A DNA stretch of 12,125 nt, from NCBI GenBank assembly GCA_034408725.1, contig JAWXCN010000118.1:1-12125 (forward strand), given 5' to 3'. This DNA is from Candidatus Hydrogenedentota bacterium. Lineage in GTDB: Bacteria > Hydrogenedentota > Hydrogenedentia > Hydrogenedentales > SLHB01. Both the position numbers and the translations under genes were made by a program. This document shows positions 3 through 3,878 of this stretch, one piece after another. How positions within the stretch are numbered: the first letter of the stretch is position 1; each line of letters begins with the position of its first letter. The notes beneath the pieces were generated by a model. The model had not been told where the DNA came from, did not search any database, and saw only the letters and a program-made list of their open reading frames with translations.

Positions 3-647
3 ATGGTCCAGGCGGCGCGGAGCGGGGTGCAGAATATTGCGGAGGGTAGCCAGGCGAGCGGCACGTCAAGGAAGATGGAAATAAAACTGACGAATGTTGC
101 GCGGGCGAGTCTTGAGGAGCTGCGGTTGGATTATGAGGATTTTCTGCGGCAGCGCGGGTTGAAGACGTGGCCGCGGGAAGACCCACGACGGCAGTTGTTA
201 GTAGATCGACGGCCCACAACGGCGGAGGAAGTAGCCGCGTGGGCAAAGGAAGTCCATAGGAGCGGGAGTGGCCAGAGTGGACAGAAAAAGAGTGGACGTG
301 GTGGACAGGGTGGACGTGGTGGACAGGGTGGACAGGAAAAGAGTGGACGTGGTGGACCGAGTGGACCGAGTGGACAGGAAAAGAGTGGACGTGGTGGACC
401 GAGTGGACCGAGTGGACCGAGTGGACCGAGTGGACCGAGTGAAAGGGATGAATTGTCCACAAAGTCCACAGGGTCCACCATGTCCACATTCCCTGAAATC
501 GCTGCGAACGGCGCTTTAACGCTGTTGGCCGTCGCTCGGGCTTTATTGGATCGCCAGATTCAATTCCAGGCCAAAACCTTCGAAACCGAAGGCGGCTTCA
601 CCGAACGCTTGCACCGGGTCCGTACTTCGGCGCGACGAAACCAATAA
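3..647 (+). CDS. Four-helix-bundle protein with C-terminal 'suffix' domain (TIGR02436/TIGR04258-like, Avd/IVS-protein fold), 5' truncated by the window, with a repeat-encoded Gly/Ser/Pro insertion
   Basis: Translation has (Q)[16 protein letters not shown]...[30 protein letters not shown], typical of four-helix-bundle proteins, and C-terminal [11 protein letters not shown]...LLDRQI...[11 protein letters not shown], typical of the suffix domain. ATG at 3 is probably internal. Stop TAA 645-647 overlaps the hsdR ATG. Confidence 0.85.
267..487 (+). repeat. Intragenic 9-bp-period tandem array (16x GTGGAC) followed by an inverted block (4x GTCCAC)
   Basis: GTGGAC at 277, 292, 301, 310, 319, 328, 343, 352, 361, 370, 385, 394, 403, 412, 421, 430, plus GTGGCC at 268. 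Units (A/G)GTGGAC(AG/GT/CG) are interrupted by 6-bp (A/G)AAAAG linkers at 285, 336 and 378, with a 42-bp higher-order duplication (336-377 vs 378-419). Reverse-complement GTCCAC at 455, 464, 473, 482, also 9-bp period. Confidence 0.97.
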
Positions 648-3600
648 TGACCGCATTCACCGAGTCCATCGTTGAACACGCCGCTTTGGATTGGCTCGGC
701 GCGCAGGGCTATGCCATCGTCAATGGCGGAGACATTGCCGTAGGCGCGCCCGCCGCGGAACGCAGCGATCCCAATTTTCGCGACACTATTCTTGAACACC
801 GGCTGCGCAACGCGCTCGCTGTGTTGAACCCCGAACTGCCTCCGGAAGCCGTCGAAGACGCCTACCGGAAACTCGTCCGCATTGATGCACCGTCGTTGAT
901 CGAACGCAACCGCGCGTTTCATCGCATGCTGGTCGATGGGGTCACCGTCGAATACCGGCGGACAGACGGGTCCATCGCGGGAGCGCCGGCGCGCGTTATC
1001 GACTTCGATAACCCGCACAACAACGACTGGGTCGCGGTGAACCAGTTCACAATCTGCGAAGGACAACACACGCGCCGGCCCGACGTTATTTTGTTTGTGA
1101 ACGGCTTGCCGCTGGCAGTCATCGAACTGAAAAATTCCGCCGACAAAAACACGACCATCTGGTCGGCTTACAACCAATTGCAGACCTATCAGGCGCAGAT
1201 ACCGTCGTTGTTTGCGTACAACGCGGTGTTGATCGTCTCCGACGGCGTGGAAGCGCGGATCGGTTCATTGGGCGCGGGCAAGGAATGGTTCAAACCGTGG
1301 CGCACGATCGATGGTCAGGAAGATGCGCCCGCGAGCATGCCGGAGCTGCAGGTGATACTTGAAGGCGTGTTCGACAAGCAGCGGTTTCTCGATTTGATCC
1401 GGCACTTTATCGTGTTTGAAGAATCCGACGATGGCACGCTTATCAAGAAGATCGCGGGATACCACCAGTTCCACGCGGTGAACGCGGCGGTGGAAGAAAC
1501 GCTTCGCGCGTCGCGCGCCGCGTATCGCGCCACGGAAGTGGCTGGCCGATATGAATCCGGTACATGGTCCGGCGCCGAGCCCGGCGACAAGCGCGTGGGC
1601 GTGGTGTGGCATACGCAGGGGTCGGGCAAGAGCTTGACGATGGCGTTTTACGCGGGCCGCGTGATTCTGCATCCCGAAATGGCCAATCCGACGATTGTGG
1701 TGATTACTGACCGCAACGACCTTGATGATCAACTTTTCGGAACGTTCGCGCGGTGCCGCGATCTATTGCGCCAACCGCCAGCACAGGCGGCGGACCGCGC
1801 CGATCTGCGAGAAAAACTTACAGTCTCTTCCGGCGGCGTCGTGTTCACCACGATCCAGAAATTCTTCCCCGAGGAAAAGGGCGACAAACATCCAATGTTA
1901 TCCGAGCGGCGCAACATCGTTGTTATCGCCGACGAAGCGCACCGCAGCCAATACGATTTCATCGACGGATTTGCCCGGCACATGCGCGACGCCTTGCCGA
2001 ACGCGTCGTTTATCGGGTTCACCGGCACGCCCATCGAATTGACGGATGCCAATACGCGCGCGGTGTTTGGGGATTACATCAGCGTGTACGACATCCAGCG
2101 CGCGGTGATCGACGGCGCGACGGTGCCGATCTATTACGAGGGGCGTCTGGCGAAACTCGAACTGAAAGCCGAGGAACGCCCGAAGATCGATCCCAACTTT
2201 GAAGAGGCTACCGAAGGCGAAGAAATCGAGCACAAGGAAAAGCTGAAATCCAAATGGGCGGCGCTGGAAGCCATTGTGGGGTCCGAGCACCGGTTGAAAC
2301 TGATTGCGCAGGACCTTGTCGATCATTTCGAGAATCGCCTCGCGGCGATGGACGGCAAGGCGATGATCGTCTGCATGAGCCGCCGCATTTGCACGGAGTT
2401 GTACAAGGAACTTGTCGCGGTGCGACCGGAGTGGCACGGCGAGACAGACGAAGAGGGCGCCTTGAAAGTCGTGATGACCGGGTCGGCAAGCGATCCCCTC
2501 GATTTTCAAAAGCATATCCGTTCGAAGAAGAAGCGGGAGGATTTGGCGAAGCGTTTTCGCGATGCGAACGATCCATTCAAGATTGTCATTGTGCGGGACA
2601 TGTGGTTGACCGGCTTCGATGCGCCGAGTCTGCACACGATGTATGTGGACAAGCCGATGCGCGGGCACGGGCTCATGCAGGCAATCGCGCGCGTGAACCG
2701 GGTGTTCAAAGACAAGCCCGGCGGGCTGGTGGTCGATTATCTCGGGCTTGCGGATGAATTGAAGAAGGCGTTGGCGACGTATACCGCGAGCGGCGGCACC
2801 GGCGAGACCGCCATCGATCAGGAACAGGCTGTTCGCGCGATGCTCGAAAACTACGAAGTGTGCCGGGGACTGTTCCACGGGTTTAACTGGTCGCGTTGGA
2901 CCACCGGCAAACCGCATGAGCGGGTATCGCTTTTGCCCGCGGCGCAGGAGCACATCCTCGCGCAGAAGGAAGGCAAGTCGCGCCTCATGGATGTGGTGAC
3001 GCGGTTGTCGCAGGCGTTCGCATTGGCCGTGCCGCACGACGAGGCGTTGCGCATCCGCGATGACGTCGGATTTTTCCAGGCGGTCCGCGCGGTGTTGGCG
3101 AAAGGCGATACCAACGGGCGCAAGACGGGCGACGACCTCGATCACGCGATCCGGCAGATCATTTCCAGGGCGATTGCGTCGGACGGCGTGATGGACATTT
3201 TTGCGGCGGCTGGGTTGAAGAAACCGGACATTTCGATCCTCTCCGATGAATTTCTGGCGGAAGTGCGGGGCATGAAGCATCGGAACCTTGCCGTGGAATT
3301 GTTGCGCAAATTGCTCGCGGGTGAAATTAAGTCGCGTTCAAAACGAAACCTGATCCAGGGGCGATCCTTTTCCGAAATGCTCGAACGGTCCATTCGTAAA
3401 TACCAGAACCGCGCGATTGAAACCGCGCAGATCATTGAAGAATTGATAGGCCTTGCAAAGCAGATCAAGGAAGCGGATCGGCGGGGTGAAGAACTGAAAC
3501 TCACGCCGGATGAGGTTGCGTTTTACGACGCCCTTGAAACGAACGATAGCGCGGTAAAAGTGCTCGGCGACGATACGCTACGCGACATCGCCCGTGAACT

Positions 3601-3784
3601 TTGTGAAACGATTCGGAAAAACACCACCATCGACTGGACCGTCCGGGAAAACGTCCGGGCTCAACTTCGGGTGTATGTGAAGCGCATCCTCCGGAAATAT
3701 GGTTACCCACCCGACATGCAGGAAAAAGCCACGCAAACGGTTATCGAACAAGCCGAACTGCTGACCGAGTTTTGGGTAGCTTAA
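647..3784 (+). CDS. hsdR: Type I restriction-modification system endonuclease/translocase subunit R
   Basis: 1045 aa. Nuclease motifs [20 protein letters not shown] (PD..ExK) and QLQTY (QxxxY). SF2 motifs WHTQGSGKS (Walker A), IADEAHRSQ (DEAH), FTGTP, MWLTGFD and [11 protein letters not shown]3387-like C-terminus ([14 protein letters not shown]...KYGYPPD). Confidence 0.97.
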
Positions 3785-3842
3785 TTTTACGACTTTTGCG
3801 TTCTTCGTATAGGCCATATACCTTGAAATTATCCTTGAATTA

Positions 3843-3878
3843 ATGGACGGAATGGACTTGACGGACGGGATGGACGTT
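3843..3878 (+). repeat. Four 9-bp tandem units with (T/C)GGAC core downstream of hsdR
   Basis: ATGGACGGA (3843) ATGGACTTG (3852) ACGGACGGG (3861) ATGGACGTT (3870): same period and core as the array at 267-437. Confidence 0.85.

Follow-up and report, generated by a model that had tools for sequence, protein, structure and literature searches.

Results

A four-helix-bundle gene carries an inverted pair of repeat arrays within its coding sequence

The 12,125-nucleotide stretch analysed here (the window) is the entire contig C118 (JAWXCN010000118.1) of a Candidatus Hydrogenedentota genome, hereafter G000, and begins within a gene for a four-helix-bundle protein whose coding sequence holds two arrays of a short repeat in opposite orientations. 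The gene lies at 1..647 on the + strand (open reading frame (ORF) 3-647), its 5' end being lost at the contig start, and belongs to a TIGR04258 subfamily that we call A, after its TGGAC word; both this label and that of subfamily B, with the word CACGGA, were coined in the present analysis. A forward arm at 266..441 (+ strand), with a 9-nt period and 16 GTGGAC cores (at 277-435), runs in frame through the loop between helices 3 and 4, and is followed by an inverted arm of four cores (455..487, - strand) that can pair with it. The third array, three ATGGAC cores and one ACGGAC at 3843..3875 (+ strand), stands alone in the spacer between hsdR, which encodes a type I restriction subunit, and a convergent HEAT-repeat gene. 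Tandem Repeats Finder returned period-9 arrays at 266-441, 455-488 and 3842-3876, and the pattern YGGAC-N4-YGGAC matched 18 times in the window, against 0.19 expected by chance, with every match inside these three sites. A preliminary description, made from the letters alone, had placed the arrays at these positions, had seen none elsewhere in the window and had noted that the gene is coupled to hsdR by TAATG; all three observations are borne out, the last by the stop-start overlap at 645..649 (+ strand).

The units within the gene are all GTGGAC (19 G, 0 A), and the array after hsdR is of the other variant. RNA folding of window positions 255-500, which include both internal arms, gave a z-score of -4.74; the array after hsdR, which begins 58 nt beyond the hsdR stop, showed no fold (z +0.73), and a terminator-like or promoter site was looked for there and none was found. 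An Rfam scan of window positions 1-4300 returned just two chance-level matches and none above chance. At 309 nt, the repeat-bearing linker exceeds that of every one of 80 relatives (117-243 nt), and contigs from four public DNA runs, one possibly from the source sample, match 1-357, 412-1483 and 3726-4011 piecewise, with no joint across the hairpin and none listed that bridges 358-411; the exact repeat copy number of the window gene is therefore provisional. Relatives have about 40 more N-terminal residues than the window ORF, and neither the missing 5' part nor a nearby hsdS or hsdM was found in the G000 assembly.

The protein is related in fold to the pentamer Xcc0516

The ORF matches TIGR04258 with 67.8 bits (curated cut-off 40) and TIGR02436 weakly, and has no Pfam match. 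A sequence search against solved structures gave no significant match, and the model of the truncated window protein matched nothing in Foldseek. The model of a full-length relative, L021 (pLDDT 86.5), superposed on the pentamer Xcc0516 (2GSC) with Z 17.7 and a root-mean-square deviation of 1.4 over 111 of 115 residues (model residues 9-181), and its Foldseek ranks 1-8 were all 2GSC and 2RLD (E 0.07-0.39); the Avd structure 4DWL was not among the matches listed by sequence search, Foldseek or superposition. This superposition identifies the TIGR04258 'suffix' domain (492..638, + strand, with the C-terminal helix) as helix 4 of the bundle and places the arrays in an insertion before it. The repeat-coded stretch has no secondary structure in the window model and appears disordered (pLDDT about 50). 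By its modelled fold the protein is a four-helix bundle of the S23p/Xcc0516 type and, by likeness to pentameric Xcc0516, it likely forms a ring. Median net charge across 103 proteins is +10.

The internal pair is kept in relatives as nucleic acid

Relatives were taken as the best 80 of at least 478 confirmed relatives, at 46-58% identity and from many phyla. An in-frame TGGAC-then-GTCCA pair occupies the helix 3-4 loop in 75 of the 80, a fraction that may be inflated because the query contained the repeat-coded peptide, and TGGAC comes first in 75/75. With a repeat-free query, arrays lay in or beside the gene in 34 of 36 genomes, all 36 having been picked for arrays somewhere. The linker is in frame in 80/80 relatives and free of stops in 79, and the cores keep to a single frame (268/274 forward, 276/283 reverse). 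Codon choice within the linker is highly skewed: glycine is encoded by GGA in 311/448 cases (69%), compared with 2672/17084 (16%) in long neighbouring ORFs, and the corresponding figures for TCC are 301/518 and 2492/9656. Linkers folded better than their synonymous recodings in 31/39 cases (the first 40 loci, one removed for a stop).

Further arms outside the gene are optional. Across 72 loci with full flanks, one flanking arm was present in 40 and both in 1, with upstream arms almost always in the TGGAC orientation (28 vs 1 reversed) and downstream arms more often GTCCA (13 vs 6 forward). In some intact relatives one internal arm or both are missing, and flanking arms are retained. Fifty of the 80 source genomes were searched for arrays elsewhere: 32 had no other three-core array, 27 of these 32 still holding both internal arms, and 9 of the 50 had at least 10 array matches.

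Each subfamily pairs with its own word

G000 contains seven four-helix-bundle matches, six of which have a repeat of their own: a 6-base, two 7-base, a 9-base TGGGA and a 10-base CACGGAC repeat, and the TGGAC of the window. The other five repeat-bearing genes lie at C254 9938-10258, C161 517-828 and 7495-7812, C259 6950-7563, and C183 11117-11608, and a four-helix gene on C255 has no repeat. Three of the paralogs are broken by stops or a frameshift. The paralogs' words are the top words of a genome-wide period survey of G000. Subfamily B carries CACGGA-then-TCCGTG arms with a 10-base period at the same place in 22/25 loci, the linker being in frame in 21/25; this repeat is read in all three frames and encodes different residues in each unit. 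Together with the fixed synonymous sites described above, and with the conservation of non-coding cores in sibling genomes described below, this sustains the earlier proposal that selection acts on nucleic acid and not on peptide.

Gene and word also go together between genomes. When all 135 genomes of the phylum were considered, at least 20 TGGAC matches were found in 32/43 genomes with an A gene and 24/84 without; in this comparison G000 was left out, 7 ambiguous genomes were dropped, G028 was added by hand since its A gene is cut by a contig end, and counts include the gene's own few matches. Without those adjustments the figures are 31/42 and 29/92. The association holds in a within-genus permutation (16 informative genera, p 0.002) and among genera (21/27 with A, 9/37 without), with the qualification that the genomes are incomplete and related ones not independent. 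A crossed test on log counts (131 genomes, 4 dropped, 4 B genes added) separated the two words: A predicts TGGAC (1.86±0.31) and not ACGGA (0.05±0.24), and B predicts ACGGA (1.98±0.28). ACGGA arrays were absent from 21/30 A-only genomes and from 0/14 B-only genomes. The internal pair in relatives and the match of subfamily to word across genomes thus uphold the suggested tie between the motif and the four-helix-bundle gene. Since each subfamily pairs with a word of its own that is also scattered in the genome, the protein likely recognizes its word.

Several other observations concern these families. Other TIGR04258 subfamilies (L106-L133) pair with different 9-base words, TAGGAC/TAAGAC and TCGGAC/TCAGAC, and some of their proteins run on into a Cys-rich tail that by eye resembles a zinc finger. 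All five out-of-frame B linkers (L182, L184, L187, L191 and L009) are off by an amount matching the loss of one 10-base unit, a pattern that could possibly reflect an on/off switch by slippage. G000 also contains 8-base GGAAG and 9-base CACAGAT periodic families without a matching gene among those looked for.

Array variants in the gene match those in the genome

The first base of the A word is A or G. After removal of the matches that lie in the gene itself, its variant was compared with that of the remaining genome in 36 of 44 A-bearing genomes (8 with six or fewer matches were left out), 3 of which were dropped for too few units; the variants agree in 28 of the remaining 33 (rho 0.71). As 19 genus means the correlation is 0.75, and switches occur inside three genera. 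An extreme case is G059, where the gene array reads CTGGAC in 9/9 units, compared with 16/322 units in the other 79 loci, and the genome reads CTGGAC in 96/177 units (400 kb looked at). One position in helix 4, Ala176 of the window protein, covaries with the variant: the 19 proteins with Gly go with 148 A and 2 G units, and the 53 with Ala with 114 A and 338 G units. On this covariation Ala176 is a candidate specificity residue.

Arrays are scattered, turn over and are not tied to hsdR

G000 contains 33 arrays of at least three YGGAC cores, 28 of them outside the window; a stricter count gave 23 sites outside the window, and two RTGGAC cores occur together at 43 sites, compared with 1 for a reversed control. 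Cores are also conserved at scattered sites. In 12 alignments of sibling genomes that are 92-95% identical (10 of them distinct, one a chance coding site, and some found via filled sites), differences fell at 9/436 core positions, 45/182 spacer positions and 132/1418 positions of other DNA. At two orthologous sites all units and the loop had been swapped for the other variant between flanks that are about 95% identical (L195:14348-14456/L204 and L200:6325-6417/L252), and repeats were also gained and lost unit by unit between genomes. Free hairpins favour the gene's own arm order in G059 (337 vs 0), G028 (29 vs 11) and G098 (25 vs 8), as well as in two further genomes (2 vs 0). In G059, which has 1410 pattern matches, the TGGAC hairpin is carried by an element of about 200 bases that resembles a MITE (miniature inverted-repeat transposable element) with terminal inverted repeats (L257-L276), and a second MITE-like family there has a word of the 10-base type beside a TGGAC hairpin. 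We had considered shared loops in G059 as proof of copying by the gene-repeat system and rejected this, given the flanking terminal repeats.

The preliminary description had proposed that the arrays bracket hsdR, either controlling restriction-subunit expression or marking points at which accessory genes move in and out of defence loci. The gene for the restriction subunit (647..3784, + strand; TIGR00348, 606.8 bits) is part of the host operon and outside the gene-repeat unit. Type I restriction-modification (R-M) genes were seen near the four-helix gene in 27/80 loci, as the union of two scans: 17 loci with an HsdR match at E <1e-20, and 22 loci with a type I subunit as neighbour (143 immediate neighbours, first 330 residues of each); 53/80 showed no type I gene. 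The stop of the four-helix gene overlaps an ATG or GTG in 39/80 relatives, and these two counts show the gene to be a common passenger, by coupling, in type I R-M operons. The overlap is retained even without an intact hsdR (L011, L028, L059 and others), and some loci retain just the first hsdR-like codons. No array lay within 300 nt of any of 13 visible ends of homologous hsdR genes. In the window, hsdR has GTCCA before it and TGGAC after it, the reverse of the usual enclosing order. The scattered arrays lie mostly by ordinary genes: among 63 ORFs adjoining arrays in 25 fetched stretches of G000, 3 match methyltransferase or R-M families, a figure that, taken without a background rate, would still allow a mild preference for R-M genes, and other named neighbours are PGK, GAPDH, malate dehydrogenase, SHMT, isocitrate lyase and ExbB/D. 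The array after hsdR is simply one more of the scattered copies, of which G000 has about 40. The earlier proposal is accordingly not supported by the genome scan or by the comparison with related genomes, and the claimed link of arrays to hsdR control should be dropped.

The remainder of the window holds ordinary host genes, namely the HEAT-repeat gene, a xylose-isomerase-like TIM barrel and a long hflX with an N-terminal extension (3918-8431). In 6/6 relatives examined, the HEAT gene is followed by other genes, with no hsdR and no TGGAC array; one from the same genus (L094) has a 6-base GTGCTC/GTAATC array directly behind the HEAT-gene stop, where the window holds its TGGAC array. Contigs from three of the public runs have one extra G at window position 4124, within the reading frame of the HEAT gene; the difference may stem from the assembly or from the strain.

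Discussion

The results above suggest that a likely ring-forming four-helix-bundle protein binds a cognate word, RTGGAC every 9 bases, both within its own gene and at scattered sites that resemble repetitive extragenic palindromes (REPs). We give this reading, drawn from comparison of genes and genomes, a probability of roughly 0.55. Identical subunits would each read one core, and the likeliest substrate would be a folded single strand, either RNA or single-stranded DNA, in which 6-bp stems alternate with unpaired 3-base spacers; the grip could resemble that of Avd, which clasps a stem-loop and lodges bases between its subunits. A folded strand is favoured over helical phasing on duplex DNA since the periods of the paralogs span 6-10 bases. 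The internal pair would serve as a home site and maintain the match between protein and word. Wherever a lineage retains the gene, additional copies would be seeded in spacers and maintained there in the manner of REPs, with any chemistry of spread left to host or transposon enzymes and the four-helix gene itself hitchhiking in type I R-M operons.

Several findings weigh against this reading or limit it. Having the gene is insufficient for spread, given the 32/50 gene-bearing genomes without another array, and 24/84 genomes without a detected A gene are nevertheless array-rich. B predicts TGGAC weakly as well (0.86±0.36), and A-only and B-only genomes do not differ significantly in TGGAC (p 0.11). 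The array variant of the gene mismatches that of the genome in 5/33 genomes, genus g44 running counter to the trend, and the link to Gly in helix 4 comes mostly from one clade, with 4 changes on the tree. The 3-base spacers of one arm show no complementarity to those of the other (93/354, or 26%, against 25% when shuffled; 56 loci), so only the cores would matter. At 21 of the 23 strict G000 sites the array is a lone arm unable to fold back, and lone arrays in co-directional spacers of G000 show no strand bias (4:4, a small sample with crude ORF calls). A purely RNA-hairpin target therefore fits poorly, and the lone, unoriented arms point to a role at the DNA level or in trans as well. No empty site was seen in the 12 sibling alignments, where sites were partly chosen as filled and remoter relatives could not be aligned across spacers. 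Lastly, because the G059 hairpins lie inside a MITE-like element, their spread need not involve the four-helix protein.

The strongest alternative is that the repeats are blind to the protein: REP- or MITE-like sequences spread by another enzyme would find a tolerant landing place in the helix 3-4 loop, and recombination would homogenize the gene array with the genome. The array-rich genomes without a detected A gene, the MITE-like ends around the G059 hairpins, the replacement of whole arrays at two orthologous sites with unit-wise gain and loss, and the disorder of the loop in the model all agree with such a process, and gene conversion would likewise yield matching variants. It has more difficulty with the observation that from one phylum to another the word tracks the subfamily and keeps to the same site, also in 27 of the 32 genomes that have no other array, and with different subfamilies keeping different words in one genome. 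For the 10-base family the crossed test shows word specificity, and upstream arms point one way. On balance we regard protein-blind repeats as unlikely, though they remain the foremost competitor to binding by the protein.

Somewhat less probable still is local control, in which the internal pair forms an mRNA hairpin that is acted on by the protein or by RNase III, tuning synthesis of the protein itself and of the product of the coupled downstream gene, with the scattered copies as by-products. That the internal pair is near-constant while flanking arms are optional, that folds beat synonymous recodings and that the stop so often overlaps a start codon would all suit this idea. There is also a precedent in Coxiella, where, in the part of the source available (PMC4990558), the intervening sequence (IVS) is described as cut by RNase III at the first of the heptamer repeats that lie upstream of the S23p ORF. 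Against it stand the unpaired spacers between arms, the intact relatives in which flanking arms are present and one internal arm or both are not, and the conservation of scattered non-coding cores; moreover, TGGAC-then-GTCCA is preferred though either order could pair.

Bracketing of hsdR is largely refuted, and we hold it to be very improbable as a unit. What speaks for it is the presence of type I R-M genes at a third of loci (27/80) with the recurrent stop-start overlap, the methyltransferase or R-M gene near 3/25 other G000 array stretches, again without a background rate, and the absence of hsdR from its place behind the HEAT gene in the relatives. These are outweighed by the homologous hsdR ends, none of which has an array, by the 53/80 loci without a type I gene, by the downstream array being of the other variant, unfolded and reversed in its arm layout, and by the different repeat family that a relative carries in the same HEAT-gene spacer. 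Least credible of all is that the repeats are kept for a flexible Gly/Ser/Thr-rich peptide linker, as the conserved frame and modelled disorder might suggest, since synonymous positions are fixed, the 10-base sister repeat codes for different residues in each unit and the same words occur in non-coding DNA; the codon data and the sister repeat led us to reject it.

Binding of a cognate word by the A protein would invite comparison with REPIN-RAYT systems. Those described by Bertels and Rainey, in the sections of PMC3337134 that we draw on, include several pairs of gene and repeat in a genome that seem to have co-evolved, with one order of the arms common and the other rare. The A system is alike in joining a gene to its own inverted, hairpin-capable repeats dispersed in extragenic DNA, again as far as the consulted sections of PMC3337134 go. 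Unlike RAYT, the A protein is not an HUH/Y1 transposase, with an HUH-like triplet in 1/103 proteins and a helical-bundle fold; its arms are tandem 6-base cores with free spacers and not single palindromes; and its main pair lies within the coding sequence, with no excision or empty site seen in the 12 sibling alignments.

A second relative may be the IVS of the Coxiella burnetii 23S rRNA, which combines an S23p ORF with heptamer repeats of variable number within a stem-loop, according to the available portion of PMC4990558. The two share the Xcc0516 fold family and short tandem repeats by the ORF. In that portion the heptamers are described and not linked to the S23p protein. The A gene differs from the IVS in that it does not lie in rRNA (in window 1-4300 Rfam gave nothing above chance) and is followed directly by hsdR, and, to the extent that PMC4990558 covers the point, in having both arms inside an ORF that is intact and highly conserved, with a repeat that is also genome-wide.

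The third comparison is with Avd of diversity-generating retroelements (DGRs). In the parts available of bioRxiv 10.1101/2023.10.23.563531, all five subunits of the Avd pentamer contact a stem-loop, with flipped-out bases between subunits, and excerpts of PMC10053308 align 2GSC with Avd 4DWL; through 2GSC, Avd and the A protein appear to share a related four-helix pentamer fold, and both are basic. DGR Avd also appears, from what these sources offer, to be a precedent for part of a gene's own coding sequence acting as functional RNA. Unlike Avd, the A protein is interrupted between helices 3 and 4 by a large insertion. We saw no linked reverse transcriptase (RT) or variable-target gene: the seven main window ORFs contain no RT, the upstream side being missing, a crude look for RT motifs found 0 in 80 loci, and G000 has a single RT match, which lies on a different contig. 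Since the conserved cores contain adenines, the variation of the repeats is not that of adenine mutagenesis.

TRAP offers a functional parallel, as a ring that reads a spaced core with free spacers; the A protein has a different fold and no link to a metabolite. Bacterial short tandem repeats of spacers, among them the cyanobacterial short tandemly repeated repetitive (STRR) heptamers, have to our knowledge no known driver. We liken STRRs to the A arrays by description alone, and lone A arrays have no strand bias.

The S23p/four-helix-bundle family is large, with no known function outside Avd in the passages available of PMC4990558 and PMC10053308. The NCBIfam entries TIGR04258 and TIGR02436 give no function and no repeats, whereas here subfamilies differ by repeat word. 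A literature search, mostly of non-subscription journals and with supplements excluded, found no published link of these proteins to dispersed repeats. What appears to be new is a genomic pattern that fits none of the families tested, along with the crossed specificity, the variant matching and the candidate residue. If the repeats prove to be protein-blind, the system would be a variant of REP-like repeats. A broader proposal, which we offer tentatively and hold to be less probable than binding itself, is that S23p/Avd-like four-helix-bundle proteins may form a widespread, code-like system in which every subfamily recognizes a short word peculiar to it, maintains an oriented pair of arrays inside or next to its gene and, without being a transposase, causes the word to be seeded and rewritten throughout the chromosome, with specificity set partly by helix 4. 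Such proteins might then supply the driver that short tandem spacer repeats and ORF-bearing rRNA IVSs have lacked, and DGR Avd might have been recruited from among them. The pairs for testing can be named, namely A with RTGGAC at a period of 9, B with CACGGA at 10, the rare CTGGAC variant and one candidate specificity residue, so that a ligand for the whole family could follow from a single cross-binding experiment. If binding is true, these proteins would constitute a natural set of small, orthogonal repeat readers.

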